Source: an uncultured Alphaproteobacteria bacterium (GTDB taxonomy: Bacteria > Pseudomonadota > Alphaproteobacteria > RF32 > CAG-239). Taken from it: a stretch of 64,000 bases of DNA. A model generated the notes under the pieces. It did not search any database. It was not told where the DNA came from and was given only the letters and a program-made list of their open reading frames with translations. The translations under genes were made by a program, and so were the position numbers. The stretch is taken from positions 360 through 64,359 of the forward strand of contig CAKQDU010000008.1 in NCBI GenBank assembly GCA_934229625.1, given 5' to 3'. Of this stretch, positions 20,975-55,378 are shown one piece after another (positions within the stretch are counted from its first letter, which is position 1; each line of letters opens with the position of its first letter).

Positions 20975-20989
20975 CTTTTTATTCCTTAT

Positions 20990-22405
20990 CTAAACATAAC
21001 CGATTGCAACCCATTCAAGCGCAACATTTGAAGAAACGGCGACGCTAAAACCGGTTGTCGTCTTCAAAATGGTGTCACAAAAAACAGAAACTGCTCCAAC
21101 CAAATTCCCCGTCATAGCCGTAACCTGTGTTAAAACAACATACGATGTGTCGGCATACGGCTGCTTAAACAAAATCTTAGAGCCATTTGTCACCCCATCC
21201 AATCCCCATTGAAACAACAGACGATTACCAAATTTGCAGCATCCTGAGGTTTTTAATAAAGTGGTGACAATAGAATTTATGCATTCACAAGCCGGCGCTG
21301 TTGTCATAACATTGCCGCTTTTATCAATATAAACTCCCATATCACCGCATTTATTGTCGGCATTGCAAACATATAATGATGATTTTATCGCTCCTTCCGG
21401 AGTTACATCCGTATAAATTGAACCATATTCTGTATCATTTTTATCCAGCGACCTGAAACCTGTAAAAATATGTTTATTCGGAGTTTCTCCAACGGCATAT
21501 TTATCTCCTTTATATATACTGCGATTATTAAAAGTATTTGCATTAAACACATTCACCGATGTCAATTTTGCATAATTAGCATCAGCATATTCAAGATTTA
21601 GAGCTTCCGTTGGTTTGCCGGCAACCGGCGTAGGCACGGTGACATATGTTTGTCCGTCTGCCGTGATATGAACTCCAAGTTCTGCCGTGTTTTTTGTTCC
21701 GTCTGCCGCATAACTGTTCGCGCTTAAAAGCAAATGCGATGACTTATCGGGATTTACCACATTTTTTATCTGTCCGCAAACTCTGTCATTTTTATCACTC
21801 ATAACATAACTGCGGCTATGTGCCGTTTCTATTTTATCGGCAAAAGAAAATTGAAGATTTTTTTGAATCACCGCGCTTTCACTATCCGAATTTTGCACAG
21901 ATAAACCGCTGACTCCCAATACGCCGGATTTTATTTCATCACCAAATCTATGTAATAAACGCTCATCATCAAAAATTTCTGCGCTTTCTGCCGCTGATTT
22001 TGCGCTTTCTGCCGCATTTTGCGCACTTTCAACCGCTGCGGCGGCTGACTGTTTGACAATATGTGCATCAACAGAAACCGCGGCAGCATTTTCAGCGGCC
22101 GCGGCAGCTGCTTTTTCGGCAGTTTCCGTATCAATCCGCACTTTGATACAATTTTGCGCAACCTCTGCTTCACTCTGTGCCGCCGCATTTGCGGAATTTT
22201 CTGCCTTTTCCATCGCATTTTGCGCTTGTTTTTTATAATTTTTAAGCTCCGGCAGAATTTCCTTGTCAGTATATTCTTTTATTTCTGTCTGACCTGATTT
22301 CACATACATAAGCTCAACATCCAAATTCAAGACAACTTCATCCTGCCAATAAATTTCAATATTTTGAGTTTCGATACAATTTACGGAAACTATATTTTCA
22401 TTCAT
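20990..22405 (-). CDS. putative tail fibre protein
   Basis: 471 aa with central Ala-rich heptad region (AAAAAENAAAVSVD...ESAQNAAESAKSAAESAE) and Cys-containing C-terminal domain. Confidence 0.45.
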   Translation of the reverse strand: MNENIVSVNCIETQNIEIYWQDEVVLNLDVELMYVKSGQTEIKEYTDKEILPELKNYKKQAQNAMEKAENSANAAAQSEAEVAQNCIKVRIDTETAEKAAAAAAENAAAVSVDAHIVKQSAAAAVESAQNAAESAKSAAESAEIFDDERLLHRFGDEIKSGVLGVSGLSVQNSDSESAVIQKNLQFSFADKIETAHSRSYVMSDKNDRVCGQIKNVVNPDKSSHLLLSANSYAADGTKNTAELGVHITADGQTYVTVPTPVAGKPTEALNLEYADANYAKLTSVNVFNANTFNNRSIYKGDKYAVGETPNKHIFTGFRSLDKNDTEYGSIYTDVTPEGAIKSSLYVCNADNKCGDMGVYIDKSGNVMTTAPACECINSIVTTLLKTSGCCKFGNRLLFQWGLDGVTNGSKILFKQPYADTSYVVLTQVTAMTGNLVGAVSVFCDTILKTTTGFSVAVSSNVALEWVAIGYV

Positions 22406-22412
22406 ATTTACC

Positions 22413-22772
22413 TCACTTTGTTACTTGCGGAGTTATGCGAAATATTCCGACTTTATTCACATCCGCCGGAAAAATTGTGTTTGTATCTCCGTTGGCGAAC
22501 ACGACCTGAATATCGGTTTTATAATTACCCACCGGAGCAGAAGTTTCTGCCGGAGACAGTCTCAGCAGATAAACACCTATAGCCTCGTCAACTTTTTCAG
22601 CTTGTTTTTGAAAAACCAAAGCATCATCATTTTTTTGCCGTACCTGCATAGTAATTGTCATTGCGGATAAATCTATTTGTTTGTTTTTCGCATTAAATTT
22701 CAATTTTATATTAAAACTGTCTCCTTGCCGGACTTCTACAATGTTTGAACCGGCTAAAATTCTTCCCGTCAT
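22413..22772 (-). CDS. phage hypothetical protein (beta-rich)
   Basis: 119 aa between the two fibre genes. Confidence 0.3.
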   Translation of the reverse strand: MTGRILAGSNIVEVRQGDSFNIKLKFNAKNKQIDLSAMTITMQVRQKNDDALVFQKQAEKVDEAIGVYLLRLSPAETSAPVGNYKTDIQVVFANGDTNTIFPADVNKVGIFRITPQVTK

Positions 22773-22775
22773 TGC

Positions 22776-23540
22776 TTATTGCTCCTTTTTTACCTTAATA
22801 AAATAATTAACAGCCTGATTAACCGGCGTTACATGATTGCTGGCGCCATAAATTGCATTACAGCGTCCGGCATCAAATGTAAAATAGGCAGCGCTGTTTC
22901 CGCCGTCTCCACTTCGAGAAGAACCGCCTGACAATGAAGCCTGAAACGCTCCGCTTGCCGCCGGATTGCGCAAATAACCGTCTTGAGCTTGTGTCTGACC
23001 GGTAATATTCGGCAAGCCTTCAGGCTGAGTGGTTTGCATATCTGAAGCCGAATCTCCGCCTAAACCGCGCAAAAATTTGCCGCGATAATCAGGAAGATTA
23101 AAAGTGGAAGTACCGTCTCCGGCGCCAAAACTTGTTCCGATTAAAGAAAACAAATCGCTGTATTCCGAGCGACTTATCGCCTGACCGTTGCACAAAAACC
23201 ATTTGTCATGATTATTTTTTTGCAATGACGCTTTTATATCGCCGACACAAAATAACGCATTCAAAAGTTCGGTTTGCTGTTTTGCAGCCGCATCCAATTG
23301 CTCTTTATTAACAGCATCTTTTTCTGCCGTACCTTTTCCCATGTTGCAAATTTTAAACCCTCCCATTTTAAGCTCACCCTGCATCGGAGCCCGTCCGTCT
23401 TTGAGCAGACATTCACTCAGTCCATCGGCAAAATTATCGTCTTCTTCATCATGACGGTCAGACACAATATCTATTTCATTTTTACGGTCGTCTTCCCAGC
23501 TGTGTATACGCGTAAACAATCCGTTACTATCATAAGGCAT
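22776..23540 (-). CDS. tail fibre protein with phage tail-collar domain
   Basis: CNGQAISRSEYSDLFSLIGTSFGAGDGTSTFNLPDYRGKFLRG matches Collar domain consensus (C-NG..L....Y..LF..IG..YG.GDG.TTF.LPD.RG). Confidence 0.7.
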   Translation of the reverse strand: MPYDSNGLFTRIHSWEDDRKNEIDIVSDRHDEEDDNFADGLSECLLKDGRAPMQGELKMGGFKICNMGKGTAEKDAVNKEQLDAAAKQQTELLNALFCVGDIKASLQKNNHDKWFLCNGQAISRSEYSDLFSLIGTSFGAGDGTSTFNLPDYRGKFLRGLGGDSASDMQTTQPEGLPNITGQTQAQDGYLRNPAASGAFQASLSGGSSRSGDGGNSAAYFTFDAGRCNAIYGASNHVTPVNQAVNYFIKVKKEQ

Positions 23541-23552
23541 ATTTTTTCTCCT

Positions 23553-25289
23553 TTATTTTATGTTGTTAAGCTCAGTAAACTTTTTTAAATCAAGTTCTTC
23601 GCGTTTAAGCTGATTTTGTTCTTTTTTAATGGCAAAATCGCATTCCATTTTTTTATTTTGAAATTCAAGCATTTTATCTTCTGTAGGTTTTACTGGCATA
23701 TCCGGAGAATTTAGTTCACGGCTTATTTTATCAAACGCATCCTCCAAAACACTTTCAAATTGCCGAGCATTTGAAAGTGTTGCCGCCGCAGCTTCAATCA
23801 TTTGCCTATACAAAGGCAGCAACGCCGGCTGCTGTGAAACAATGCCAAAAGCCTGACTTATCATTTCATTGATGTTTGACAAGACTTTAAGAATATTTTC
23901 TTCTTGCCGATTGATGTCAAAACTGCCGTCTGTTTCTATATCAATCACCATATCGCGCAGCTTTTGAGTTTTCAGCAATTCGATGGCTTGTCCAATCAAT
24001 TCCGGATTTTTTGCGGCATCTTCGGAAGCAAATGAAGCCAATGTTTCGGGAGAAAACTGTTCACAAATAATCTCTGCTTTTATGCGTAGCAAATCTTTCA
24101 AAAAACGCTGCATATCATTTTGGCGGTCCTGGTTACGCAAAGTACCAAAATTTGTTTTTTTCACCACGGCAGTTGCAGTATCTTGAGAATTTGACGAACC
24201 GCGCATAATATCGCTGACACCAGTTACTTCATAAACGGCTTCGGTCAGCACCTGCCGTCGTTCAGCTAAAACCTGCAAAGTTGCGATATATTGTTCAATC
24301 GGAGCAAAATCTATAATTCCCCTGATACCTCCGGCGTCTTTTAATTTTTCAAAATCGTTCAAAGCGATAAGGGTAACATCCTTATCTAAAATATTTGCAA
24401 GCTCCGGAAAAGAATTGTCATAGCAACCGGAAACTTTCAGAGCCTGCATTGTCAGGCGCATTCGGTTGTTTACGCCATCAAGTTCATCCAGCAGACTTTT
24501 AATTTCCACATAATCCGGCACCGGAACAATTCCGTCATTGCTAAGTGTCGCCATAATCGGTTTAGGACACGGAAAAAATCCGCTCAAATGCAAAGTATCT
24601 TCATTGATTTGCAAAAAATCATCTGGATATTCCGGACTGAGATAATATATTTTGCGAGTTTTCTTATCCCAAATTTCATAAACCGAGATGCTTTTGTCGG
24701 TGAAATTATGCTGCCAGAAATAATTTGCCAAATCTTCATTAAAATTAGAATAAATCTCGCTTACATTCATAAAAGTTTTGCGAGCAATCCATTCAACATC
24801 TTCCCAGACATTTACTTTATCAATATCGGCCAAAAAAGACAAAGGATTAACATATTGAGTTGTAACCTGCTCCTTATCTTTTAAAATCACATTGCCTATA
24901 TATTTGAAGCTGGATTGATATTGTTCCCATAATATACCCATACCGGAAAGCAAAAAATCATTGCGCGCATATTTTATGACACTATCAAAGTCAAATTGCT
25001 TCATATCCCAATCCAAAGCTTTTTCCAAAATTTGACAAGCAGTATTTTCAACAGCGTCGGCTTTTTTATTTCCTCTGATGATAAACGGCTGCGGCTGTCT
25101 GAAATATAGGAATGGTTTCAGCGTTTCTACCGACGACCAAAAAATGTTTTGTTTGTTACGATTGCGCTCATTGCGATAATATTTTCGAATTTCTTCAACT
25201 AACGCATAATAATCGCCATAAGTTTTTTCAGATGACCTAATTTTGCTAAGCCATTCCTGATATAATTTGCTATTATTTTGTTTTTCCAT
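23553..25289 (-). CDS. putative portal (head-to-tail connector) protein
   Basis: 578 aa; size and central segment pattern resemble T7 gp8-type portals; located in the structural module. Confidence 0.5.
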   Translation of the reverse strand: MEKQNNSKLYQEWLSKIRSSEKTYGDYYALVEEIRKYYRNERNRNKQNIFWSSVETLKPFLYFRQPQPFIIRGNKKADAVENTACQILEKALDWDMKQFDFDSVIKYARNDFLLSGMGILWEQYQSSFKYIGNVILKDKEQVTTQYVNPLSFLADIDKVNVWEDVEWIARKTFMNVSEIYSNFNEDLANYFWQHNFTDKSISVYEIWDKKTRKIYYLSPEYPDDFLQINEDTLHLSGFFPCPKPIMATLSNDGIVPVPDYVEIKSLLDELDGVNNRMRLTMQALKVSGCYDNSFPELANILDKDVTLIALNDFEKLKDAGGIRGIIDFAPIEQYIATLQVLAERRQVLTEAVYEVTGVSDIMRGSSNSQDTATAVVKKTNFGTLRNQDRQNDMQRFLKDLLRIKAEIICEQFSPETLASFASEDAAKNPELIGQAIELLKTQKLRDMVIDIETDGSFDINRQEENILKVLSNINEMISQAFGIVSQQPALLPLYRQMIEAAAATLSNARQFESVLEDAFDKISRELNSPDMPVKPTEDKMLEFQNKKMECDFAIKKEQNQLKREELDLKKFTELNNIK

Positions 25290-25351
25290 AATTTTTCCCC
25301 ATAGAAAAACAGGCCCGTAAAATAACGAGGCCTGTTTTATTAAAAAATTTA

Positions 25352-25600
25352 TTATTTTATAATTTTACCCAAAAGGCTTTTCTCACGTATGACAACCAGG
25401 TCATCCTGCGGTAAAGGCAATTCATCAAAACAATGAAACAAAACTTTATCTCCAACTTTTGCCCATGTAACATCCTCGCCAATACTTTGCACAACACCTT
25501 GATTTACAATATTATTCTTAATATCATTAAAAATAATCCGGCCATGTTTAAGTTTATCAGGCTTAATAATAAGCCTGTCTTTTATAGCTTTTAGCATCAA
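25352..25600 (-). CDS. GroES-like co-chaperonin
   Basis: 82 aa; KAIKDRLIIKP...VGDKVLF... matches Cpn10 N-terminal (L.DR.(I/V).K) and C-terminal (VGD.V.F) signatures. Confidence 0.5.
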   Translation of the reverse strand: MMLKAIKDRLIIKPDKLKHGRIIFNDIKNNIVNQGVVQSIGEDVTWAKVGDKVLFHCFDELPLPQDDLVVIREKSLLGKIIK

Positions 25601-25726
25601 TATATTTCTCCAAAAAAACAGAGATTAAGCTGATTTCAATCAAAAGCTTAATCTCTAAAAATATAAGTTTTATCAAAACACAATTTTACATGATAGTAAT
25701 TTTATTATCATACAGGTAACCAAATG

Positions 25727-26221
25727 TCAAGAACTTTTTTCATTTTTTTGAAAATAAAATTTAACAAGCCTTTCCAATCCCAGCACCAGCAAGCTTTTCA
25801 GATGATATACAACTTGTTTGCTCAGCAAACTATGCTTAATAATATTCTTATCTGCTTTTAACTCTTTATCTTCTATACAGACGCTTCTGACAACGGGCCA
25901 AAATTCTGTCGGAATGCTCTGTATCGCTTTTATATAGCGCTCTTTATAAATCAACGCATCCTCACGGCAAGAATAATTTGAATTTGTTTTTATTAAAGAA
26001 ATTGATTTCAGATTATTATAATTTCCAAGATAAAAATCTTTTAAGAGACGTTCTCCTGCTATTTTGCGGTCTTCGGCGCTAAATTTACTGCCTTTAAGCT
26101 CTAACACGCCGTTTTCATAGTATTTTTCCAAAACAGAGAGTTTATATAAACCGCCTTCCCGGCGTTTACGATAACCTTTTTTAATTGCATTTTCTTTTGA
26201 TATATATTCTTCATCTGACAT
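25727..26221 (-). CDS. hypothetical protein
   Basis: 164 aa. Confidence 0.3.
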   Translation of the reverse strand: MSDEEYISKENAIKKGYRKRREGGLYKLSVLEKYYENGVLELKGSKFSAEDRKIAGERLLKDFYLGNYNNLKSISLIKTNSNYSCREDALIYKERYIKAIQSIPTEFWPVVRSVCIEDKELKADKNIIKHSLLSKQVVYHLKSLLVLGLERLVKFYFQKNEKSS

Positions 26222-29206: not shown

Positions 29207-29620
29207 CTAAGCTCCTTTTTTTTGGTGAAAATATTCCGGAGAATAGCCATTCGGATGACGTTTTTTCAGTTTTTCCATATTACGATTTATGATTTCTTCA
29301 AACGGTACATCAAGCGCCAAACAAGCTTGGAACATATACCAGCAAACATCTCCGAGTTCTTTAATAAACATATCTCGCGTTTCATTGGTATAATTAAGTC
29401 CCATAAACTTGATTTTTTTCCATACATCATCAACTTCGCCGACTTCACCGCACAAACCTGAAACGGCATGGTCCAAACGAGCATAATTACCTTTTAGCTG
29501 TTTAGAAAGTTTAGTAAAATTTTGAGCAAAAAGCTCATCGTTTTTTGCTGTTTCAGAAGTAACGCCATCCACAAAACTCTGATATGCGGCAAGATATTCT
29601 TTTTCTTCCATTTTACACAT
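29207..29620 (-). CDS. MazG-like nucleotide pyrophosphohydrolase
   Basis: 137 aa; EVGEVDD and ELGDVCWY metal-binding motifs typical of the MazG/all-alpha NTP-PPase fold; 8-bp overlap with mutS. Confidence 0.65.
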   Translation of the reverse strand: MCKMEEKEYLAAYQSFVDGVTSETAKNDELFAQNFTKLSKQLKGNYARLDHAVSGLCGEVGEVDDVWKKIKFMGLNYTNETRDMFIKELGDVCWYMFQACLALDVPFEEIINRNMEKLKKRHPNGYSPEYFHQKKGA

Positions 29621-32285
29621 CCTTTTTCAGTAATTCTTTTAAGTCATACAATTTTTGCAAAGCCTCGCGAGCAGTCATATCATCCGGATTAAGTTTTTCC
29701 AGCTCATCAATAACCGGAGATTTTTTTATTTCTTTCGGCACATATGAAAACAACGGCAGTTCATTGTCAAAACTGTTAAGCCCCTTATGCTGATTTTCAT
29801 TTTCCAACTTTGTCAAAACCTGTTCGGCACGCTCCAAAACAGCTGTTGGCAAACCGGCTAATTTTGCAACATGAATACCATACGAGCGGTCGGCTGCGCC
29901 ATCTATAACCTCATGTAAAAAAATGACTTCACCCTTAAACTCTTTGATTTTCATGCAATGCAAGCTCATGGCTTTCAATCTTTCCACCAAATCGGTAAGT
30001 TCATGATAGTGAGTGGCAAACAAAGCGCGGCATTTATTTACTTCATGCAAATATTCTACCACCGCCCAAGCAATTGAGAGTCCGTCAAAAGTAGCTGTAC
30101 CGCGTCCTATTTCATCCAAAATAACAAAAGAGCGTTTGTCTGCTCGGTTCAGAATAGACGCAGTTTCAACCATTTCCACCATAAAAGTAGAACGACCGCG
30201 CGCCAAATCGTCTGAAGCGCCGACCCGTGAAAAAACTTTGTCCACATAGCCTATATGCGCCGATTTTGCCGGAACATACGCCCCCATTTGCGCCATAATG
30301 GCTATAATAGCATTTTGCCGTAAAAATGTGGATTTACCAGCCATATTCGGACCAGTAAGAAGCCAAATACGATTATTGTCCACATCCAAACCACAGTTAT
30401 TGCCGACAAAACTTCCTTCATGATTGCGGCGGAGCGCATCTTCAACAACCGGATGCCGACCTTCTTCAATCTCAAACGCATAACTGTCGTCAATTTCCGG
30501 ACGGCAATAATTGTATTCAAGCGCCAAATCAGCCAGCGCCGCTCCGACATCCAGCTCGGCCAAAGCGGTTGCCGTACGGGTTATATCATCAGCAGCAAGC
30601 AAAATATTATGCACTAAATCATCAAAAACGGCTAATTCCAAAGCAAGAGCCTTTTCCGAAGCTCCGCGGATTTGGTTTTCCAGCTCAGTCAGTTCAACCG
30701 TCGTAAAACGAGAAGCATTCAGAACCGATTGTCTGTGAATAAATTCAGGATTTCCAAGCACCTTAGCTGAATCTTTATTGGAAATTTCTATAAAATAACC
30801 GATTACATTGTTATATTTTATTTTAAGGTGTTCTATTCCGGTTTGTTTCACATATTTGCTTTGCAAATTCAAAATATAGTTATGCCCTTTATTTTTCAAA
30901 TCACGCACGGCATCAAGCTCCGGACTGTAGCCGGCTTTGATAAAATCGCCGTCACGCGCCAAAAGCGGCAGGTCGTTTGTTCTGTCTTCCACCCACAAAG
31001 CATTTGCCAGCATATTAACCAGCATGCTATGATTTCCGAATTTTTGCAATACTTCGGCAACCGCTACCGGCAGCTCATCCAAAACATCAATGGCTTTAAA
31101 TGATTCTATTAAAGTTTTCAGCTTTGGCAGACTGCCCAAAGTCATGCCTATGGCTAGCAAATCGCGAGGTCCACCGCGGCCGACGCCAAGTCTGGAAACG
31201 GCACGTTCAACATCAGGACAGCTTTTCAGTATAGCACGCAATTTTTCTCGCACATCTTGATGTTTTAAGAAAAACTCGACCACATCCAAACGTTTATTTA
31301 TTTTATCAACATTCAACAGCGGATTAGCCAAGCGATTGGCTAACAATCTGGCACCGGCTCCGCTTACGGTTCTATCCATTACAGAAATCAGCGTAGCGCC
31401 GCGCGGGCCTTCCAATAAGTCCAAATTATGACGGGTTGCAGCGTCTATTTCCATATATTGACTGCTCAATATTTTTACCGGACGGGCAATGCGCGGCATT
31501 TTGCCTTTTTGAGTATTTTCAACATAATCAAGCAAAATTCCGGCCGCAGAAATTTCAATTTTACTAAAATTTCCAAACGAGTCCAGCGTGTTAACCTGAT
31601 AAAATTCTAAAATCCTTTTCTGAGCATTACCGCTATTAAAACGAGCCTGCGGCAATACAGAAAGTTTTTCTTTATATTCGTTCAACAGATGAAACAATTC
31701 AGGATTCTGCAGCAATGCATCCGACACCAAAATTTCGCTCGGCGACAATCTGTCAATTTCAGTATGCAGCTGAGCCGCCTCATTTTGAGGGCAAACTTCA
31801 AGTAAACGGGTATAAAACACGCCGGTGGAAAGGTCTATCCACGCCAAACCAAACTCGTTTCCATTTTTTGCCACGCACAACAGATAGTTATTTTTCCGAG
31901 AATCCAAAATAGTGTCTTCGGTAATAGTTCCGGGAGTCACCAAACGCACAACGTCTCGGCGCACAATAGCCTTATAGCCGCGTTTTTTAGCCTCTGCCGG
32001 ATTTTCCATCTGTTCGCAAATAGCCACCTTGAAACCCTGTTTCATCAGTTTTGCCATATAGCTTTCATAGGCATGAAAAGGCACGCCGCACATCGGCACA
32101 TCTTTACCATCGGCCTTTCCGCGTTTAGTCAACGCAATATCCAAAGCTTTTGAAGCCGTTATGGCATCTTCAAAAAACAATTCATAAAAATCGCCCATGC
32201 GATAAAACAGCAAATAGTCCTGATGAGCCTTTTTCAGCTCCATATATTGTTCCATTGCCGGCGTTAAATTACTTTTTTCCGTCAT
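29613..32285 (-). CDS. mutS: DNA mismatch repair protein MutS
   Basis: 890 aa; mismatch-binding N-terminus (GDFYELF), Walker A GPNMAGKST, STFMVEM, C-terminal dimerisation. Confidence 0.95.
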   Translation of the reverse strand: MTEKSNLTPAMEQYMELKKAHQDYLLFYRMGDFYELFFEDAITASKALDIALTKRGKADGKDVPMCGVPFHAYESYMAKLMKQGFKVAICEQMENPAEAKKRGYKAIVRRDVVRLVTPGTITEDTILDSRKNNYLLCVAKNGNEFGLAWIDLSTGVFYTRLLEVCPQNEAAQLHTEIDRLSPSEILVSDALLQNPELFHLLNEYKEKLSVLPQARFNSGNAQKRILEFYQVNTLDSFGNFSKIEISAAGILLDYVENTQKGKMPRIARPVKILSSQYMEIDAATRHNLDLLEGPRGATLISVMDRTVSGAGARLLANRLANPLLNVDKINKRLDVVEFFLKHQDVREKLRAILKSCPDVERAVSRLGVGRGGPRDLLAIGMTLGSLPKLKTLIESFKAIDVLDELPVAVAEVLQKFGNHSMLVNMLANALWVEDRTNDLPLLARDGDFIKAGYSPELDAVRDLKNKGHNYILNLQSKYVKQTGIEHLKIKYNNVIGYFIEISNKDSAKVLGNPEFIHRQSVLNASRFTTVELTELENQIRGASEKALALELAVFDDLVHNILLAADDITRTATALAELDVGAALADLALEYNYCRPEIDDSYAFEIEEGRHPVVEDALRRNHEGSFVGNNCGLDVDNNRIWLLTGPNMAGKSTFLRQNAIIAIMAQMGAYVPAKSAHIGYVDKVFSRVGASDDLARGRSTFMVEMVETASILNRADKRSFVILDEIGRGTATFDGLSIAWAVVEYLHEVNKCRALFATHYHELTDLVERLKAMSLHCMKIKEFKGEVIFLHEVIDGAADRSYGIHVAKLAGLPTAVLERAEQVLTKLENENQHKGLNSFDNELPLFSYVPKEIKKSPVIDELEKLNPDDMTAREALQKLYDLKELLKKDV

Positions 32286-36152: not shown

Positions 36153-36767
36153 ATGAAAAATCAACGTGGTCGCAGTATGATAGAAATGCTGGGTGTTTTG
36201 GCACTTATCGGCGTTCTCTCTGTTGGAGGCATCGCCGGATATTCTAAAGCGATGGAAAAATATAAACTTAATAAAACCATTGAAGAATATAACTATGTTA
36301 CACATGGTTTATTAGAGCATTTGCCTGAACTTCAAAAACTAAATTCCACTGACAGTCAATATATGATTACAGATTTTGTTTTAGCCGCAAATATAGTGCC
36401 TTCAACCTGGAAACGACACAATGGAACAGATTTATCAGATTCCTATGGCGGTGCAATAGCTATTTTTATAAGAAACAATCATCTGAGTTTAGAAATTTAT
36501 CATCATTATCCTTATGATGACGCAGGTTCTTTATCTTCAATTGAATTTTGTAAAACTTTGTTTAAGGATGTAGCGCAACCGCTATCATCAGCCATGTACG
36601 GCGTTGGTCTATATATGTTTGATTATGATGATAATATTATATACGGAAATGCCCATTGTGATGGTGATAAAACCTGTTTGAATAATTTAACGATTTCTGA
36701 AATAAATAAAATATGCAACTCCTATAAAAAAGATGCAAATTACAGTTCGGTTATTTTATATTTTTAA
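36153..36767 (+). CDS. type-IV-prepilin-like protein, paralog 1
   Basis: ggagg RBS; leader MKNQRG then RSMIEMLGVLALIGVLSVGGIAGY (Gly-1, Glu+5, hydrophobic helix); Cys-rich C-terminal motif HCDGDKTCLNNLTISEINKICNSY. Confidence 0.6.
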   Translation: MKNQRGRSMIEMLGVLALIGVLSVGGIAGYSKAMEKYKLNKTIEEYNYVTHGLLEHLPELQKLNSTDSQYMITDFVLAANIVPSTWKRHNGTDLSDSYGGAIAIFIRNNHLSLEIYHHYPYDDAGSLSSIEFCKTLFKDVAQPLSSAMYGVGLYMFDYDDNIIYGNAHCDGDKTCLNNLTISEINKICNSYKKDANYSSVILYF

Positions 36768-36810
36768 ATTTTGCCGTATAGACTGTTTTTATTTTACAAT
36801 TATTCAGCGG

Positions 36811-36903
36811 TTAACTTATGGCGTGAGACTGTTATAAAATTAGAGTGTAAACAACATAATTTTAGAGGAAAGAAAGATGAAAAATAAGTTATTCAAATTC
36901 TAA
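36811..36903 (+). promoter_or_regulatory. orphan, truncated copy of the pilin-paralog promoter-leader module
   Basis: ttaact-N16-tataaa then gagtgtaaacaacataattttagaggaaagaaagATGaaaaataag...; copy lacks the (TC)7 tract and downstream gene; uORF reduced to 8 codons (36877-36903). Confidence 0.55.
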
Positions 36904-37025
36904 ACATCTGATTATCATATGAAAAATGAACAAGCCTGTGCCTTAGTTTTGGATTGTTAGCTAAAATGCCTCAAAAAAAACGCTGTAAACTTTTTAGAGT
37001 TCCGCAGCGTTTTTAATTTTACAAA

Positions 37026-37811: not shown

Positions 37812-38100
37812 TTTTGCGGTTGACTTATGAAAAAAGGCTGTTATAGAATTGGAGTGTAAACAACATAATTTTAGAGGAAAGAAAGATGAAAAATAAGCTA
37901 TTCAAAGGTCTCTCTCTCTCTCTGCAAATCCTAAACATCTGATTAAAGGCATATTTTTTGCCACTCAGCGTGTTTTTGCAGAGTTCAGCGCAAAAAATCA
38001 CACATTCGAAAATAACACATTCAGTAGCTACTCTATAAAGGGTTCTGGATTGCTTCGTCGTTGCACTCCTCGCAATGACATTTGCAGCGTGGGACGTTCC
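37812..38100 (+). promoter_or_regulatory. conserved promoter-leader module of pilin paralog 2 (sigma-70-like promoter 37820-37847, uORF 37886-37942 with (TC)7 at 37909-37922, inverted repeat ctctgcaaa/tttgcagag)
   Basis: ttgact-N16-tataga; module ~90% identical to copies at 44869 and 45786; uORF MKNKLFKGLSLSLQILNI preceded by gaggaaag RBS. Confidence 0.6.
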
Positions 38101-38700
38101 ATGATAGAAATGCTCGGCGTATTGGCGATTGTCGGAGTGTTATCAGTCGGTGGCATCGCCGGTTACTCCAAAGCTATGGAAAAGTGGAAGGTTAATCAAC
38201 TGATTAGTGAATATACCCATTTTATGTTTGGAGCCGTTGAGCATTTGGATGATATTAAAAAAGTCCCCAACGGCAGCGGCTATGCCGATATAATGCAGTC
38301 TCTAAATATTATTCCAACCTCTTGGAAATATGATAACGCCAGCAATGTCCATGACCGGCTTAATAACCGAATACAGCTATGGCGGGGAGGTTCAGATTTA
38401 GTTTTTGAAATTTATCTGCTGGAAGAATATGAGGAGAAAGATTCTTATTCTTTAGCTGAACCGCGAGTTCAGCTCTGCCGTGAATTGTTTCTAAACTTTG
38501 TACAGCCGCTTTCCGAATTTGTGGATTATTCCTATGTATGGCGTGGAAATGCGCAAACTCTTAATCCGTTATGGTATGGAAATAATTATTGCGGTGCTGA
38601 TAAAAAATGCCTAAAAAACGTAACTCTGGCAGAAATAAACGCAGCTTGCCATACCTGCGGAGACAGCTACGGAACTTGTTCTATTGTTATAACTTATTGA
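38050..38700 (+). CDS. type-IV-prepilin-like protein, paralog 2
   Basis: TTG-start ORF; conserved ...RNDICSVG|RSMIEMLGVLAIVGVLSVGGIAGY; C-terminal NYCGADKKCLKNVTLAEINAACHTCG. Confidence 0.6.
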   Translation: MLRRCTPRNDICSVGRSMIEMLGVLAIVGVLSVGGIAGYSKAMEKWKVNQLISEYTHFMFGAVEHLDDIKKVPNGSGYADIMQSLNIIPTSWKYDNASNVHDRLNNRIQLWRGGSDLVFEIYLLEEYEEKDSYSLAEPRVQLCRELFLNFVQPLSEFVDYSYVWRGNAQTLNPLWYGNNYCGADKKCLKNVTLAEINAACHTCGDSYGTCSIVITY

Positions 38701-44667: not shown

Positions 44668-44868
44668 AAAAATTAGTTTGACATAAAAATAACTATTTGA
44701 ATAAGCAATAAAATATTAACTCATAAAAGTCAATATGTATATTTTAATAAAGTGTATTACATGTCTAAAAATACATCAATATAGAACAAGCATTTTCTCC
44801 GTTATCTTTACACATTTGGCAAGCCTCACTAATTTCTGCCGGTGTCATATCTTTGATATATTTACCTG

Positions 44869-45148
44869 TTGACTTTAGTTAAACGTCTGTTATAGAATTG
44901 GTACGTAAACAACATAATTTTAGAGGAAAGAAAGATGAAAAATAAGCTATTCAAAGGTCTCTCTCTCTCTCTGCAAATCCTAAACATCTGATTAAAGGCG
45001 TATTTTCTGCCGCTCAGCGTGTTTTTGCAGAGTTCGGCGTAAAAAATCACACATTCGGAAATAACAAGTTCAGTAACAACTCTATAAAGGGTTCTGGATT
45101 GCTTCGTCGTTGCACTCCTCGCAATGACGCTTGCTCTACTGGTCGTTC
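44869..45148 (+). promoter_or_regulatory. promoter-leader module of pilin paralog 3 (ttgact 44869-44874, tataga 44891-44896, uORF 44935-44991 with (TC)7)
   Basis: same module as 37812-38100. Confidence 0.6.
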
Positions 45149-45761
45149 CATGATAGAAATGCTCGGCGTTCTAGCTATTATCGGTGTGCTGAGTGTCGGC
45201 GGCATTGCCGGTTATTCCAAAGCAATGGAAAAATGGAAAATAAACAAAACCATTGAAGAATACTCTATGTTAATAACCGGACTTATAGAATATAAAGACA
45301 ATTTTATCAAAAACACCCCGACAGAAACTGATGTATATCTTCCTGATTTTATTCAGGCCGCAAATTTAGTACCTGAAACTTGGAAAAAAGGCGGTTCATC
45401 ATATATGTATGATACTTTAGGAAACAGGGTTAATATATACTTTTCCAACACAGAAAATATTTCCGGCACCCGATATGTCTTTGATATATGGTTTGCTCAA
45501 TCCGCCTCATCAAATAATTCTCTTGCATATAATTTATGCAGAGCTTTTTATCAAGATGTTGGAATTGCCATGTCTTCAAATGTACTGGCAATAATAGTAC
45601 AAAGAGGAAAACACTTTGCATATGGAGATACTTTATGCCACGAAGGGACAGATGAAAAAGGCAACCCAAGACATTGTTTGCGTGATATGAAATTATCAGA
45701 AATTAGTGATATTTGCAAAACCTGCCAGACAACTAATTGCGCTGTGTATCTTGTTTTTTAA
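45099..45761 (+). CDS. type-IV-prepilin-like protein, paralog 3
   Basis: ...RNDACSTG|RSMIEMLGVLAIIGVLSVGGIAGY; C-terminal LCHEGTDEKGNPRHCLRDMKLSEISDICKTC. Confidence 0.6.
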   Translation: MLRRCTPRNDACSTGRSMIEMLGVLAIIGVLSVGGIAGYSKAMEKWKINKTIEEYSMLITGLIEYKDNFIKNTPTETDVYLPDFIQAANLVPETWKKGGSSYMYDTLGNRVNIYFSNTENISGTRYVFDIWFAQSASSNNSLAYNLCRAFYQDVGIAMSSNVLAIIVQRGKHFAYGDTLCHEGTDEKGNPRHCLRDMKLSEISDICKTCQTTNCAVYLVF

Positions 45762-45785
45762 TTATGATTACATCTGATTTTGCGG

Positions 45786-46060
45786 TTGACTTATGGCGTG
45801 ATACTGTTATAGAATTGGAGTGTAAACAATATAATTTTAGAGGAAAGAAAGATGAAAAATAAGCTATTCAAAGGTCTCTCTCTCTCTCTGCAAATCCTAA
45901 ACATCTGATTAAAGGCGTATTTTTTGCCGCTCAGCGTGTTTTTGCAGAGTCCGGCATAAAAAATCATACATCCGGAAATAACAAGTTCAGTAGCTACTCT
46001 ATAAAGGGTTCTGGATTGCTTCGCGTTGCTCGCAATGACGTCTGCAGCGTGGGACGCTCT
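45786..46060 (+). promoter_or_regulatory. promoter-leader module of pilin paralog 4 (ttgact 45786-45791, tataga 45808-45813, uORF 45852-45908 with (TC)7)
   Basis: same module; 6-nt in-frame deletion in the leader-peptide region relative to other copies. Confidence 0.6.
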
Positions 46061-46669
46061 ATGATAGAAATGCTTGGCGTGCTAGCTATTATTGCCATTT
46101 TAACAGTCGGCGGAATTGCCGGTTATTCCAAAGCGATGGAAAAGTTTAAGCTCAATAAAGCAATCAGCGAATATAGTATGCTGATTTTTGGCATGCAGGA
46201 CTATATTGAATCTATACAAAAATATACAATTGACGAACCTCATATCGGCGCTGTACAGATAGCTGAAGCAGCAAATTTAATTCCTCAGGCATGGGAAATA
46301 CAAAGCAATTATGGTCTGCTTGATGTATATGGTAATCGCTTACAAATCTATATAGATAAATCACCTCGGCATTTAATTATAGATTTTTATTTGCAAGGAA
46401 TGACTAAAGCCGAAACCAATCAATATACACAAACATTTTCCGGTAAATTATGTATGGAGCTATTCAATAATATAATTATTCCGCTTAACAATACTATTTA
46501 TGAAGCACACATATTCCGTTCTAAAAGTGGTAATGGTAAAAATTTTTCAGGCAAAACTTCATGCTCCTCAAACAAAACCTGTATAAAAGATATGACACTA
46601 AATGATGTACATAATGCCTGTAATTATTGCACCGCAGAAGATAACTGCGCAATTGTCCTAGTATTTTAA
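46016..46669 (+). CDS. type-IV-prepilin-like protein, paralog 4
   Basis: ...RNDVCSVG|RSMIEMLGVLAIIAILTVGGIAGY; C-terminal SCSSNKTCIKDMTLNDVHNACNYC. Confidence 0.6.
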   Translation: MLRVARNDVCSVGRSMIEMLGVLAIIAILTVGGIAGYSKAMEKFKLNKAISEYSMLIFGMQDYIESIQKYTIDEPHIGAVQIAEAANLIPQAWEIQSNYGLLDVYGNRLQIYIDKSPRHLIIDFYLQGMTKAETNQYTQTFSGKLCMELFNNIIIPLNNTIYEAHIFRSKSGNGKNFSGKTSCSSNKTCIKDMTLNDVHNACNYCTAEDNCAIVLVF

Positions 46670-46722
46670 CTAATTTTGCACACACTTTTAACATTTTAAT
46701 TATGCGGTTAATATTAGTTGAA

Positions 46723-46753
46723 TTGCTGTTTAAGAATATTAAACAGCAATTTC
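46723..46753 (+). terminator. rho-independent terminator
   Basis: ttgctgtttaa-gaatat-ttaaacagcaa 11-bp perfect stem then ttt. Confidence 0.6.
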
Positions 46754-46824
46754 ATATATTAGTCAGCTCAAATATTTCTAAGCCTAAATTTATTGCCGAA
46801 ACCGCCATAAATTATTATAAAACT

Positions 46825-46859
46825 AACCTCCTGAAACCTAGAATCAGTTTCAGGAGGTT
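46825..46859 (-). terminator. rho-independent terminator downstream of rplS
   Basis: aacctcctgaaac-ctagaatca-gtttcaggaggtt 13-bp perfect stem. Confidence 0.6.
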
Positions 46860-46878
46860 AAGCAAACATAGATACTTA

Positions 46879-47268
46879 TTATTTACCTGCGTTAGCGTCT
46901 TTAACAGATACAGACAAATCGTCTGCAATACGAGCAGAACGGCCACGCAAAGCACGCAAGAAGTACAATTTCGCACGGCGAACTTTACCGATACGAGATA
47001 CTTCAATTTTAGCTACGTTTGGAGAATACAACGGGAATACACGCTCAACACCTTCACCGAAAGAAATTTTTCTAACTGTGAAAGAAGAGTTCAAACCGTC
47101 GTTTTTACGAGCAATGCAAACACCTTCATAAACTTGGATACGTTCGCGGTCGCCTTCTTTTACTTTTGTATGAACGCGCAAAGTATCACCCGGCTTAAAT
47201 GTCGGCATATTTTTGCCTTCCATGAGCTTTTCAATTTGCTCTTTTTCAATATTTTCAAGAATGTTCAT
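46879..47268 (-). CDS. rplS: 50S ribosomal protein L19 (alpha-type C-terminal extension)
   Basis: GDTLRV...EGVCIAR...[21 protein letters not shown]...[10 protein letters not shown]. Confidence 0.95.
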
Positions 47269-50613: not shown

Positions 50614-51324
50614 TCACAACTTGAAAAACATAATCAAACTGCATCGTTTTTCAGAATTGCATTTTTTACAAAAATCATAAATTTCATTCGGCTTAGCAGA
50701 ACCGATATTGTCCAATCTGGTTGCAGAAAATCCATTATAACTGTTATCTGACGCAAAATTTGCAATATCATCAACATATGGAGCAATCGCCTGTGCTTGT
50801 TCTAAAAATGTTACGCAATATTGTTGCTGTAAACGAGTTGAAACATTGTTTTGAGAAATAAGAAAACGCAAAGAATATTCATAAGCATGATGAGTTTTAC
50901 CGTCTTGACTGTTCCATGTATTATACCACATCAGCATATCTAAATTATTGCCGGCAAAATCTTCAAATGCATTATTATGTATTTTTGTCAGTCCGTCAGG
51001 TATCCCCCCCATAGCTTCCATAATATCAGCTGTTGGAACAACTTTGTTATCTTTTAAACATTCGCGCATAAAATCATCTTTTAAATTTATGCTTTGCAAA
51101 AACAATTCGGCTAAATACTCTTTCTGCCGACTAATTTTCCATTGTTCCATAGCTTTTGAGTAACCAGCGATTCCTCCGACTGATAGCACAGCAATAATCG
51201 CCAGTACGCCAAGCATTTCTATCATTGACCGTCCCAATGTACAAATGTCACAATTGCGTGCGGTGCAAATCAATCCGCTAAAATTATACGAATTTTTTGT
51301 ATTTTCTTTTAATTTATCAGACAT
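50614..51324 (-). CDS. type-IV-prepilin-like protein, paralog 5 (long 33-aa leader)
   Basis: aaggag RBS; ...CTARNCDICTLG|RSMIEMLGVLAIIAVLSVGGIAGYSKAMEQWK; C-terminal FCKKCNSEKRC. Confidence 0.6.
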   Translation of the reverse strand: MSDKLKENTKNSYNFSGLICTARNCDICTLGRSMIEMLGVLAIIAVLSVGGIAGYSKAMEQWKISRQKEYLAELFLQSINLKDDFMRECLKDNKVVPTADIMEAMGGIPDGLTKIHNNAFEDFAGNNLDMLMWYNTWNSQDGKTHHAYEYSLRFLISQNNVSTRLQQQYCVTFLEQAQAIAPYVDDIANFASDNSYNGFSATRLDNIGSAKPNEIYDFCKKCNSEKRCSLIMFFKL

Positions 51325-51780
51325 ATTATGAACTCCTTAAAGTAATAATTACACAAAAACCGCTCAAAAAAAGCGGTCGGAGAGTTCAACAATCATATCA
51401 TTACAAATGACTCTTTTAGCCTTTCAAGCTATATTTTTTTCAGAGATAATTATATAGCTTTTGGACATACGCTAAAAGCTCCCCGACCATATTGCTATGT
51501 ATCGGGGATATATTTAATCATCGGCAATAGCGAATAACCGATAACTTGACGATGCTATATCCTAGCACCGGTAATGATAAGAGCCGTTGAAAGCCCCGCG
51601 CTAACCGCGCTTGTTTTAATATATAAAGAATTAAAATAAAAAGCAAACAAATTTTTGCCGAATAACAGCCTATGTGCCGACACACTTTTCAACTTATACT
51701 ATGTGCATATTATAAGTTGCTTGTACCATATCACATGCGCAAATGATAACAATTCAAAGTTAAGTACACATAAGCAACCG

Positions 51781-52262
51781 CAAAAAAATCCCGTTATCTA
51801 ATTATAACGAGATTTTTTTAGTTTTTAGTCAGTTGGTTAATTTTTGAGTTTATAATCAATTTTTCTTAAACATTCTTCCAAAATAGAAATTGACTTAGCT
51901 CCGATTTGCGGCCTGACATAAACATTGCTTTTATTAGAGGCCAATAACTCCCCAACTGTAGAAAAATCCTTAGACAACGCATTCAACATTCGTGTTTTCA
52001 ATTTGTTGTCGCCATCATGATATTTCAACAGCTCAGAAATACTCATATCCTTTAGCTTAATATCTTGTCCGACTTTTTCTAAATCAGATAAAGATGTTTT
52101 GCCTTTGACGCCTGATTGTTCTCTAACTTCAGCAAGATACTTGTCAAAAGAAACTTTAAAATCCTCGCTGATAATTTCATAATAATCTTTCACAAAAGCG
52201 CTGAGCAATTGAGCATCACCTTTTTAAAACAAAAAAAGGAGCATTTTTCCAACACTCCTTTT
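51781..52262 (-). repeat. tandem duplication unit, copy 1 (contains 5'-truncated gene 51837..52208)
   Basis: ~480 bp matching 52733-53215; central ~330 bp identical by eye, flanks ~90%; T-run 7 vs 9 in terminator hairpin. Confidence 0.8.
51837..52208 (-). pseudogene. 5'-truncated duplicate of gene 52789..53205
   Basis: protein identical over most of length to the 138-aa copy but N-terminal ~15 residues replaced; in-frame stop just upstream (ttt taa aaa ggt gat). Confidence 0.5.
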
Positions 52263-52647: not shown

Positions 52648-52732
52648 TTTAATTGAATAGAATAATAAATTTTAAAAATATATTATCTGTTTTATATTTT
52701 TTGTCAATACTTTTATTTTAGCGTCAACCTCA

Positions 52733-53215
52733 AAAAAATCCCGTTATCTAATTATAACGAGATTTTTTTTTAGTTTTTAGTCAGTTGGTTAATCTTTGAG
52801 TTTATAATCAATTTTTCTTAAACATTCTTCCAAAATAGAAATTGACTTAGCTCCGATTTGCGGCCTGACATAAACATTGCTTTTATTAGAGGCCAATAAC
52901 TCCCCAACTGTAGAAAAATCCTTAGACAACGCATTCAACATTCGTGTTTTCAATTTGTTGTCGCCATCATGATATTTCAACAGCTCAGAAATACTCATAT
53001 CCTTTAGCTTAATATCTTGTCCGACTTTTTCTAAATCAGATAAAGATGTTTTACCTTTGACGCCTGATTGTTCTCTAACTTCAGCAAGATAATTGTCAAA
53101 CGAAGCTTTAAAATCATCGCTGATAATTTCATAATAATCTTTAACAAAAGCTCTAAGCAATTTAGCATCGCCATTTGCTAAAAGTAATTGTTCAAACTCT
53201 GTCATAAGAATAAAA
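52733..53215 (-). repeat. tandem duplication unit, copy 2 (contains intact gene 52789..53205)
   Basis: see copy 1. Confidence 0.8.
52789..53205 (-). CDS. hypothetical protein (138 aa), HhH-like C-terminus
   Basis: MTEFEQLLLANGDAKLLRAFVKDYYEI...; driven by consensus promoter at 53244-53273. Confidence 0.5.
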   Translation of the reverse strand: MTEFEQLLLANGDAKLLRAFVKDYYEIISDDFKASFDNYLAEVREQSGVKGKTSLSDLEKVGQDIKLKDMSISELLKYHDGDNKLKTRMLNALSKDFSTVGELLASNKSNVYVRPQIGAKSISILEECLRKIDYKLKD

Positions 53216-53243
53216 TTTAGTTAATAATAATGTCTACTGTTTA

Positions 53244-53273
53244 ATTTATAGACAAATTACCGCGCATTGTCAA
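53244..53273 (-). promoter_or_regulatory. consensus sigma-70 promoter (TTGACA-N17-TATAAA) in portable terminator+promoter cassette, copy 1
   Basis: minus-strand ttgaca atgcgcggtaatttgtc tataaa; preceded by ctgatgtt-acaa-aacatcag terminator hairpin; cassette repeated at 54403-54532. Confidence 0.6.
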
Positions 53274-53316
53274 ACAAAAAAGCCTGATGTTACAAAACAT
53301 CAGACTTTATTGTCAG

Positions 53317-54402
53317 CTAGAAATCTTCAATACGATGAAGCATACTCTCAAAAAAGGCTATTTCTACCACATTACTGTGAGCTTTGCAAAAATTCAAAGC
53401 ATCATAATAGCATTTTTTCCGCGCCTTTTTTACATCTACCGCCAAATACAGACGCACACAGATTGCCTCCATCGTATCTGTCAATTTATGTCCCGTATAG
53501 TTCTCAATATACCTAAAAATACCGGCTGTATTTTCTCCCTCAATGATATCCTTAACAATGTACGAAATTGTTGTAATACCGACAAAAAACGCAGCCAAAC
53601 GTGTCAGTTCTGCCAAAAACACTTCAGTTTTCAGCTGCGGATAAGCCTTGCAAACTTCTGGCATTTCCGTACCGACTGTACTGAATGCCATTAAAAAGCG
53701 CAGCAAATCCACACTATCTGTTTTAATAAGCTGCTGAATAATTTCCGGTGCCGGATAGTTTTTGAACGTAAATTTACTAAGCAGCCACTTGCTGACTTTT
53801 TTATTTTGAAGTTCCAAAATATCCAACTGCAAATCAACATCAGGCAACAGCTTTTGAGCTACCACATTATCTGGTAAATAATGCATAGCTCTTTCCAGCG
53901 CCCAAAGTTTTTCCTTAGCCGGATTTTCAGCATTTTTAGCCTGTTTCAGCAACAAACGCAAAAGCCGAATACTACTGAACCTACCGACATAATACGACAG
54001 TTTACGGCATTTAGATTCCAGCGGCTCGCCGTAATCATCACGCTTGCACTCACCATAACCGGAACTCATAGCCACCAACTTTTGTTCAGCTTCAGCACTA
54101 AGCGCATGGTCCATCATATAGGTGTATTCGCTGTCCAAAATGAGCTGTTCCAATTCAGCACCGTACGGAATTTCTTGGCGTGAATGAATAGCAACTCCAA
54201 GCAGTTTGACCGGATTTAAGTTAATATAATTCAACATTTTTTCATCCGGCATGTGTGAGAATTGCTCTACCAACAGCTGCTCTGCCTGCTGAGCATCTTT
54301 TGCTTTGCACACATGGGTCACAAGTTTCAAAATTTGCTCAGGGATAAGTTTACCTTGTTCAGCATCATCCCACGAAAACTCAGAATAATCAAAATTTGCC
54401 AT
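53317..54402 (-). CDS. MANFDY-family hypothetical protein, paralog A (361 aa)
   Basis: intact ORF; shares N-terminus MANFDY.EF and C-terminus ...EIAFF....IEDF with locus 54516-55378. Confidence 0.55.
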   Translation of the reverse strand: MANFDYSEFSWDDAEQGKLIPEQILKLVTHVCKAKDAQQAEQLLVEQFSHMPDEKMLNYINLNPVKLLGVAIHSRQEIPYGAELEQLILDSEYTYMMDHALSAEAEQKLVAMSSGYGECKRDDYGEPLESKCRKLSYYVGRFSSIRLLRLLLKQAKNAENPAKEKLWALERAMHYLPDNVVAQKLLPDVDLQLDILELQNKKVSKWLLSKFTFKNYPAPEIIQQLIKTDSVDLLRFLMAFSTVGTEMPEVCKAYPQLKTEVFLAELTRLAAFFVGITTISYIVKDIIEGENTAGIFRYIENYTGHKLTDTMEAICVRLYLAVDVKKARKKCYYDALNFCKAHSNVVEIAFFESMLHRIEDF

Positions 54403-54441
54403 AATATATAAAATTTAGTTAATAATAATGTCTACTGTTTA

Positions 54442-54471
54442 ATTTATAGACAAATTACCGCGCATTGTCAA
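54442..54471 (-). promoter_or_regulatory. consensus sigma-70 promoter, cassette copy 2
   Basis: identical ttgaca-N17-tataaa upstream of 53317..54402. Confidence 0.6.
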
Positions 54472-54515
54472 ACAAAAAAAGCCTGATGTTACAAAACATC
54501 AGACTTTATTGTCAG

Positions 54516-55378
54516 TTAGAAATCTTCAATATTACGCAGAATATCTCTGAAAAATGCAATCTCTGGTATTTTTTTCCAGACATCGCAAAGTTTTTTAGCG
54601 TGATATAAGCACTCTTGGCGAACCTGTTCGTTATCCCCCTCAAGATACAGCTTCACATGAATTCCCTCCATTGTGTCAGACCACGGCGCATGCCGGCTAT
54701 CTTCAATATGCTTTATAAATTCAGAAATCCTGAGAGCGTGATATTTTTTTCGTCATCAAGACCTATCATTCTGGTCTTCTCATTGTCTAAAAGCATAAAT
54801 GGACCAATCTTTACAAGATGAGTAAGACGAGCCAATTCAGCTAAATACACCTCCAGTTTAAGCTGAGGCAAAGCTTGACAAACCTCCTTGATTTTTGTAC
54901 CTGCAATACTATGTGAAAGCAAATAGCGCAAAGGTTTAATCATCTTCAGCTGAACAAATTTTTCAATAACCTGTTCTTGCGGATATTTCAGATAGTCAAA
55001 ATGACGAAGCAGCCTCATGGCAACTCTTTCATTCTGAAGGTTCAAAATGTCCAACTGCAAATCACAATCATCAAGAAGTTTGTTTGAATCATCGTCAAAC
55101 ATAAATTCTAAAGCCACATCCAAACCCCAAAGATTTTCATGCGACGGGTCTGGCAGCTGCTTGGCTTTTTCTACCAACAATCGGATTACATCGACGTTGC
55201 TTTTACGTTGAAGATAACCATACAGACGTCTAACTTTTTTATCAAGAATAGTAAAATATTCATCTCTTTCAATGTTTCCATACCCTGGACACACGTCGAG
55301 AACAAGTTTGAACTGTTCTTTATCAAACTTAGAATTATCACTATTCTTCAAAAACTCAAAATAATCAAAATTTGCCAT
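54516..55378 (-). pseudogene. MANFDY-family paralog B, interrupted by a 1-nt frameshift in an A7 tract (54744-54750)
   Basis: N-terminal part 54713..55378 (frame 2) ends ...DDEKNITLSGFLNL*; downstream frame-0 continuation 54516-54752 encodes ...SDTMEGIHVKLYLEGD...EIAFFRDILRNIEDF* matching paralog A C-terminus; inserting one A restores a ~290-aa ORF. Confidence 0.7.

Follow-up and report, generated by a model that had tools for sequence, protein, structure and literature searches.

Pilin genes of an uncultured human-gut alphaproteobacterium are probably phase variable, switched by slipped-strand changes in the length of a TC dinucleotide tract that lies within the coding sequence. Under this interpretation, to which a probability of about 85% is given, a conserved module and the pilin open reading frame downstream of it together form a single gene. 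It would encode a type IVb-like prepilin whose leader is exceptionally long, with (TC)n in codons 8 to 13 of that leader. Three such genes are present in the 64-kb stretch of DNA that was analysed (the window), and a related metagenome-assembled genome (MAG) would hold at least 12.

A repeat search of the 64-kb window identified three copies of the module, each of approximately 300 nt, at 37812-38111, 44861-45160, and 45778-46077. In gapped alignments of the three copies the promoter-to-leader part is 88-90% identical, the region encoding the N-terminal helix is approximately 76% identical, and the remaining coding sequences share 53-56% nucleotide identity and 29-31% amino acid identity. A sigma-70-like promoter with 10 of 12 matches was found in each by a promoter scan, reading TTGACT-N18-TAGAAT in copy 1 (37820-37849, plus strand) and recurring at 44869 and 45786. 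The module promoters are among the top-scoring sites in the 11.5 kb scanned and the promoter is conserved in most of 20 aligned module copies. An alternative -10 sequence in copy 1, TATAGA, has TGT directly before it. Further downstream on the plus strand are a Shine-Dalgarno (SD) sequence, AGAGGA (37873-37878), a 7-nt spacer, and an ATG at 37886-37888; the corresponding ATGs of copies 2 and 3 are at 44935 and 45852. The segment containing these, AGAGGAAAGAAAGATGAAAAATAAG, is invariant in 20 out of 20 aligned copies, though absent from the search pattern, as are the first codons. In ON alleles the called open reading frame (ORF) begins at this SD-ATG. Judged from the sequence, pilin gene 1 really starts at ATG 37886.

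The second putatively phase-variable gene extends from 44869 to 45761 on the plus strand, with its promoter at 44869-44898, a (TC)7 tract at 44958-44971, its Gly(-1) codon at 45141-45143, and its stop at 45761; it is in the OFF state. The third, also on the plus strand, extends from 45786 to 46669 (promoter 45786-45815, (TC)7 45875-45888, Gly(-1) codon 46052-46054, stop at 46669) and is OFF here, with an ON (TC)6 version in another contig, L026. A truncated fourth module, identified in the repeat search at about 36802-36915 (plus strand), retains the promoter, the SD, and the first 7 codons, ATGAAAAATAAGTTATTCAAA, and is 88.5% identical to copy 1 over 87 nt. A deletion between two CAAA repeats has removed approximately 22 nt, the TC tract among them, and no pilin ORF is present downstream. 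When the whole window was searched against Rfam at gathering thresholds, the sole match was a tRNA-Leu; the module had no match.

An earlier note on this DNA, made from the letters alone, had described approximately 90% identical modules attached to three pilin paralogs, upstream of strongly diverged coding regions. It listed in each a near-consensus sigma-70 promoter, an 18-codon ORF equipped with a ribosome binding site and containing exactly (TC)7, and a 9-bp inverted repeat around the stop of that ORF. All of these are present. The promoter is the identical site, then read as TTGACT-N16-TATAGA.

The tract is a perfect (TC)7 in all three copies. In copy 1 it lies at 37909-37922 (plus strand), codons 8 to 13 after the ATG, where n=7 is OFF and n=6, 9, or 12 would be ON. 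No other dinucleotide repeat in the 64-kb window reaches 5 units. With seven units the ATG opens an 18-codon ORF, MKNKLFKGLSLSLQILNI, in 3 of 3 copies, and translation of copy 1 ends this out-of-frame product at TGA 37940-37942 (plus strand). The ATG frame is offset by 2 nt from the pilin frame. The pilin frame itself is free of stops from just past a TAA at 37894, through the tract, and into the pilin in all three copies; the other two frames have 2-5 stops over the same stretch. When tract lengths of (TC)6 or (TC)9 were simulated, MKNKLFKG(LS)n became fused to ANPKHLIKG...G|RSMIEMLGVL... in all three copies, giving products of 270-276 aa, and (TC)5, 7, 8, and 10 gave products of 14-20 aa.

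Between TAA 37894 and TTG 38050 the pilin frame has no ATG, GTG, or TTG, therefore its continuity through the tract makes sense only for the upstream ATG. Because the frames join at (TC)6 and (TC)9, and because no other start precedes TTG 38050, the apparent upstream ORF (uORF) is best seen as the 5' end of the pilin gene itself, read in the wrong frame when the tract is (TC)7. The repeat unit is not divisible by 3 and lies inside an ORF past its start codon, and a full-length product is made only at some repeat numbers, the others ending soon after the tract. These are features of phase variation by simple sequence repeats (SSR).

According to the proposed mechanism, transcription would begin at the conserved sigma-70-like promoter and ribosomes would start at the SD-ATG (37886, 44935, and 45852). 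Where n is a multiple of 3 (6, 9, 12), the ribosome would read MKNKLFKG-(LS)n/3-ANPKHLIKG...G|RSMIEMLGVL... and carry on through the pilin, so that the gene would be ON; where n is 7 or 8 it would stop after 16-18 codons and the gene would be OFF. Gain or loss of TC units through slipped-strand mispairing in replication would switch the paralogs independently, each cell drawing from a repertoire. The window genes would all be OFF, and loss of a single TC unit would turn any one of them ON. The long leader would remain in the cytoplasm and be removed by prepilin peptidase after Gly(-1), and its sequence could drift and accept in-frame insertions while the frame stays open. We infer expression, the occurrence and rates of switching, leader cleavage, and pilus assembly from the structure of the genes.

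Variation in the tract is found in related DNA. A protein search using the hypothetical (TC)6 product as the query returned many homologues, which their sources label as coming from uncultured Alphaproteobacteria. Of the 120 top-ranking protein clusters, 23 begin MKNKL[FS]KG(LS)nANPKHLIKG, with (LS) counts corresponding to TC6 in 19, TC9 in 3, and TC12 in 1. The DNA was inspected directly for one example of each: TC6 (L026), TC9 (L029), and TC12 (L030). Tract lengths of (TC)6, 7, 8, 9, and 12 occur across public assemblies with the module. An unbiased DNA pattern scan with a count of the tract found 12 copies in an alphaproteobacterial MAG from the Hadza gut, with TC7 in 8 and TC8 in 4. The same kind of scan, scored by match length, found 14 copies in metagenome contigs, with TC6 in 4, TC7 in 7, and TC8 in 3.

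The most direct comparison comes from L026, an independent ENA contig that is 99.7% identical to window positions 45021-47102 over 2082 nt. The two are separated by a single indel, one TC unit long, that puts copy 3 ON in L026. The remaining differences are four SNPs within 22 nt of the copy-3 leader (window 45951-45972), at which L026 has the copy-2-type leader sequence. This patch suggests gene conversion between modules. In addition, six groups of mature pilins with at least 93% identity occur in different tract states, including 6/7/9, 6/7/8, and 6/7. Repeat-number polymorphism with conserved flanks is thus seen among related alleles. The earlier note had proposed that the TC tract acts as a slipped-strand switch for each paralog, and had suggested that strains be compared for TC-length variation. 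Such variation was found, with lengths of 6, 7, 8, 9, and 12 among near-identical alleles, and this part of the proposal holds.

It is very improbable that errors of assembly or sequencing, at a site that is repeated and of low complexity, account for the differences in tract length. Many of the modules are at contig ends, where assemblies break, and the metagenome contigs are from short reads, as this explanation would predict. However, the five lengths come from many independent assemblies and samples and always differ by whole TC units, the flanks are clean and identical, and lengths of 7 and 8 are present at different loci of one MAG. The tracts, at 14-24 nt, are also well under read length.

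Many metagenome contigs end inside or beside the module (L002, L005, L014, L015, L017, L019, L022, and L024). The repeated cassette evidently breaks short-read assemblies, and for this reason pilin repertoires in MAGs are probably under-counted.

Each of the 15 copies from the window plus the Hadza MAG is OFF, an outcome with a probability of approximately 0.002 under random states. The frameshift model must therefore assume either that at any locus most cells are OFF, as for opa, or that the OFF state has been selected. These OFF states could also mean that the three window genes are pseudogenes in decay, frameshifted relatives of a functional paralog such as that at 36153-36767, and that the TC differences are neutral indels. 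A leader without constraint at the amino acid level and the dead, truncated module at 36802-36915 would fit such decay. Yet the sole frame-breaking lesion is always the tract, and 55-219 leader codons and approximately 200 mature codons are free of stops and other frameshifts in every copy. The SD and ATG are invariant, the key residues and Cys of the mature protein are conserved, and the same alleles recur in frame elsewhere, with 4 of the 14 metagenome copies ON. Decay is therefore considered unlikely to be the explanation, with only a slight probability, and frameshift switching of intact genes is preferred.

The leader between the tract and the cleavage site is the strangest part of these genes. 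In copy 1 its coding region in the pilin frame is 57 codons (37924-38094, plus strand), from ANPKHLIKG to LLRRCTPRNDICSVG, the last codon being Gly(-1). Complete leaders were available for 22 copies, and in all 22 the first codon after the tract and G|RSMIEM share one frame. The leaders in these copies are 55-219 codons in 12 distinct lengths (165-657 nt), every one a multiple of 3. The pilin frame contains 0 stops in all 22, compared to 2-21 in the other frames. Based on mononucleotide shuffles, the chance of a stop-free frame is approximately 0.03 at 55 codons and 0.001 or less at 117 codons or more. Single-site differences in the pilin frame number 288 synonymous and 1162 non-synonymous, and variable columns are spread over the three codon positions as 21, 28, and 24, so that neither the substitution counts nor the codon-position spread detected purifying selection at the amino acid level in the leader. 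Since there is no amino acid constraint, the coding status of the leader is drawn from frame and stop statistics. Selection seems to act on the continuity of the ORF alone, as would be expected for a leader that is cleaved and cytoplasmic.

Leaders of the module pilin genes (L001-L030; proteins P0008, P0040, and P0114) are mosaics with in-frame, repeat-like insertions. The translations of these insertions include CVAVGNKVMDTRLPQPAGCGDKYDVSG, YPSPDAKASPSPARGEG, HRPWCDKILGTDCASRPSMTGARG, and VILGLVPRI...EDSWDKPKNDW. In the longer leaders they are present both upstream and downstream of a TTG-containing element encoding LLRRxxPRND. Long leaders include those of 219 codons in L007, where the module is on the minus strand, 183 codons in L003, and 155 codons in L001 from position 7427. 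One mature allele is found with leaders of 55, 117, or 219 codons. In the ON state the leaders would be 67-71 aa for the window alleles and up to approximately 182 aa in called ON proteins, with an overall range of 67 to approximately 230 aa. Prepilin leaders have been described as short and hydrophilic, of 6-30 aa (PMC4471445). The module genes in the ON state fall outside this length for a class III signal peptide, and the leaders of two pilin paralogs that lack the module, at 6 aa (paralog 4) and 31 aa (paralog 5), fit it.

The TTG-containing element, GATTGCTTCG...CGCAATGAC, encodes GLLRRxTPRND just before the cleavage site and is at 38048-38079, 45097-45128, and 46014-46039, as well as at 6052-6086 in L027, from a related species. 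Within the window it is in the three modules only, with the version in copy 3 being 6 nt shorter and in frame. In related loci, short copies also occur outside recognised leaders, and the element is kept even in species that have another pilin start (MFKGIEFFKGKSRG...) and no TC tract.

The earlier note had proposed that a separate leader uORF, through the position of its stop relative to a 9-bp hairpin, controls the pilin by translation-coupled switching or attenuation; in such a model the pilin itself would start at the TTG at about 38050. The inverted repeat, CTCTGCAAA (37920-37928) and TTTGCAGAG (37975-37983), brackets TGA 37940 on the plus strand, and in the (TC)7 and (TC)8 states the short ORF does end between its conserved arms. 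Attenuation of this kind has been documented for the pil1 locus (PMC3894217), and gene callers sometimes place the pilin start at the TTG, as in P0064 and P0083. The stem also appears in the minimum free energy (MFE) fold of 37856-38000, as the earlier note had thought worth checking. However, the energy is not unusual (z = -1.71), with 16 of 200 shuffles folding at least as well. No terminator-like site was found in a scan of 37886-38100; the stem has no U-run, and the stretch directly 3' of it is A-rich rather than U-rich. No covariation was seen across 20 copies, where the arms are nearly invariant and so uninformative. In L030, the (TC)12 ON allele, the right arm is TTTATAGGG and the stem is broken with no compensating change. 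The inverted repeat is real in the sequence, and a function for it is unsupported.

The reading frames argue further against a separate uORF. At n = 6, 9, and 12 it does not exist, being fused with the pilin, and the model leaves unexplained the in-frame, stop-free leaders of 12 lengths in 22 of 22 copies, including those with insertions upstream of the TTG. The TTG at 38050 has a weak AAGGG upstream. The homologues of the leader tail in paralog 5 and L027 are translated from upstream ATGs with a strong SD; in L027 the TTG-containing element is inside an ORF that begins at an upstream ATG with an AAGGAGG SD, which speaks against a TTG start. Attenuation through the hairpin thus has no more than a small likelihood, although some weak, tract-independent initiation at TTG 38050 could occur. 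In the same MFE fold, part of the (UC)n tract is base-paired to the SD region, which is rich in purines (AGAGGAAAG), within 37873-37922. Tract length could thus also influence SD accessibility in the predicted structure, the overall fold of which is not significant.

Returning to the frameshift reading, a more tentative extension of it, put at somewhat less than an even chance, concerns the leader. It may be a long (67 to approximately 230 aa), unconstrained spacer that needs only to be translated, changing by in-frame insertion and recombination of short repeat-like or palindromic elements. With the promoter, SD, ATG, and (TC)n it may make up a portable phase-variable expression cassette, evolving in concert and passed between pilin genes. 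The association of one mature allele with three leader lengths and the clustered four-SNP patch hint at this. If so, the class III signal peptide would extend far beyond its known limits and the leader would be a new example of selection on ORF continuity only. With such leader lengths and no amino acid constraint, cleavage and assembly of the precursor remain a proposal.

The proteins downstream of the modules have the hallmarks of type IV pilins, which have been defined by a leader ending in Gly and a hydrophobic stretch with Glu5 (PMC4471445). In G|RSMIEMLGVLAIVGVLSVGGIAGY, the Gly that ends the leader is followed by approximately 21 hydrophobic residues interrupted by Glu5. Mature pilin 1 (RSMIEMLGVLAIVGVL..., with Glu5; 38095-38700, plus strand; 201 aa and a stop) was delineated from its translation, homologues, and predicted fold. 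Gly-1, Glu5, and the hydrophobic helix are invariant in 42 homologues, and the Cys and key mature residues are conserved. The predicted structure is a pilin fold, with a long N-terminal helix on a beta-sheet, and its best matches are CofA and TcpA. A Foldseek search with the pilin had no match and a PDB profile search found no pilin match. Pfam N_methyl scored 19.5 bits, against a cutoff of 21.2, for paralog 4 only, and NCBIfam prepilin families matched with E = 3e-4 to 3e-3, far below their cutoffs. Their identification as type IVb-like pilin paralogs is supported by the N-terminal features, the Cys, and the predicted fold, in agreement with the attachment of the module to pilin paralogs first noted.

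Two other paralogs in the window lack the module. Paralog 4 (36153-36767, plus strand) has a GGAGG SD and the leader MKNQRG|RSMIEM, and its first three codons, ATGAAAAAT, are common to the module. Paralog 5 (50614-51324, minus strand) has an AAGGAG SD, an ATG, and a 31-aa leader that ends FSGLICTARNCDICTLG|RSMIEM.

The closest parallel is with the opa genes of Neisseria, in which CTCTT repeats are present in the leader-peptide coding region and repeat number sets the frame. About 11 opa genes are described, subject to stochastic phase variation (PMC3745409). As with opa, the module genes are a scattered multigene family of surface proteins with a conserved 5' end and a pyrimidine repeat just past the start, each copy of which would be ON or OFF independently, with most OFF at a time. 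Unlike opa, the repeat unit here has two nucleotides instead of five, the product is type IV pilin-like with a class III signal peptide rather than a beta-barrel outer membrane protein with a Sec signal, and the host is an uncultured gut alphaproteobacterium.

The CT-repeat outer membrane protein genes of Helicobacter pylori (oipA/hopH, sabA, and hopZ) share the CT/TC unit, the 5' position in the signal or leader, and the (LS)n peptide. H. pylori, to our knowledge, is without MutS/MutL mismatch repair. For oipA, a 5' CT repeat with a frame-shift ON/OFF logic is described (PMC10564699). The genes described here differ in that MutS is encoded, the products are pilins, and approximately 55-219 unconstrained codons separate the repeat from the mature protein.

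The pil1 locus of Streptococcus gallolyticus is the analogue of the attenuation proposal. Its pilus genes are preceded by a short leader ORF that contains a repeat, and its pilus heterogeneity is stochastic; the leader ORF there stays separate in every case and exerts its effect via a stem-loop transcription terminator (PMC3894217). In contrast, the leader ORF here fuses with the pilin at n = 6, 9, and 12 and no terminator was found; neither an always-separate leader ORF nor an intrinsic terminator before the structural gene is present.

In common with the type IVb pilins (TcpA, CofA, BfpA, and PilS), the mature protein is approximately 200 aa, with Glu5 and a hydrophobic alpha1-N helix after a leader that ends in Gly, +1 is not Phe, a C-terminal Cys is conserved, and the predicted fold is closest to CofA and TcpA. 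We know of no type IVb major pilin that is switched by intragenic repeats. Type IVb leaders are longer than those of type IVa (PMC4471445). Even so, the leaders of 67 to approximately 230 aa differ from the about 15-30 aa of type IVb, and there is Arg at +1. Past the N-terminus there is no significant Pfam, NCBIfam, or PDB pilin match, and no adjoining assembly operon was found.

This type of switch is already known; it is the host and the gene family that are new. The oddity is in the prepilin leaders, which are very long, mosaic, and unconstrained, yet always in frame, and these raise the question of what prepilin peptidase and the SRP/Sec route require of a leader. The uncultured gut bacterium would possess an opa-like set of independently switchable pilin genes. 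At least 3 candidate switchable genes in the window and 12 in the related MAG suggest that the pili are under strong fluctuating selection, for which host antibody, phage, or adhesion targets are the candidate causes. The locus allows population heterogeneity to be read straight from metagenomic reads. It also carries a warning for annotation, as gene callers give OFF genes arbitrary starts or split them into a uORF and a pilin.

The neighbours of the pilin genes are of the housekeeping kind and include mutS, a histidine kinase, MacB-type ABC/HlyD, an M23 peptidase, a bactofilin, smpB, and trmD-rimM-rpsP-ffh. The MutS (29613-32285, minus strand) is full-length and lies 5.5 kb from the first module. 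On the basis of this gene the organism is probably proficient in mismatch repair, which should damp dinucleotide instability and so counts against the switch. The scanned ORFs of the window yielded neither a prepilin peptidase nor pilus machinery. Literature searches found nothing for the RSMIEML motif and nothing relevant on the pili of gut Alphaproteobacteria.

Elsewhere in the window, a prophage-like block on the minus strand, at about 11650-26000, has many ORFs without Pfam hits, along with a terminase large subunit (18263-19588) and an SU10 adaptor-like protein (13627-14349). Two pairs of near-identical direct repeats (98-100%) are also present, 51775-52112 with 52725-53064 and 53210-53365 with 54408-54564. 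These flank and include paralogous small ORFs, namely 51837-52208 with 52789-53205 and 53317-54402 with 54713-55378.
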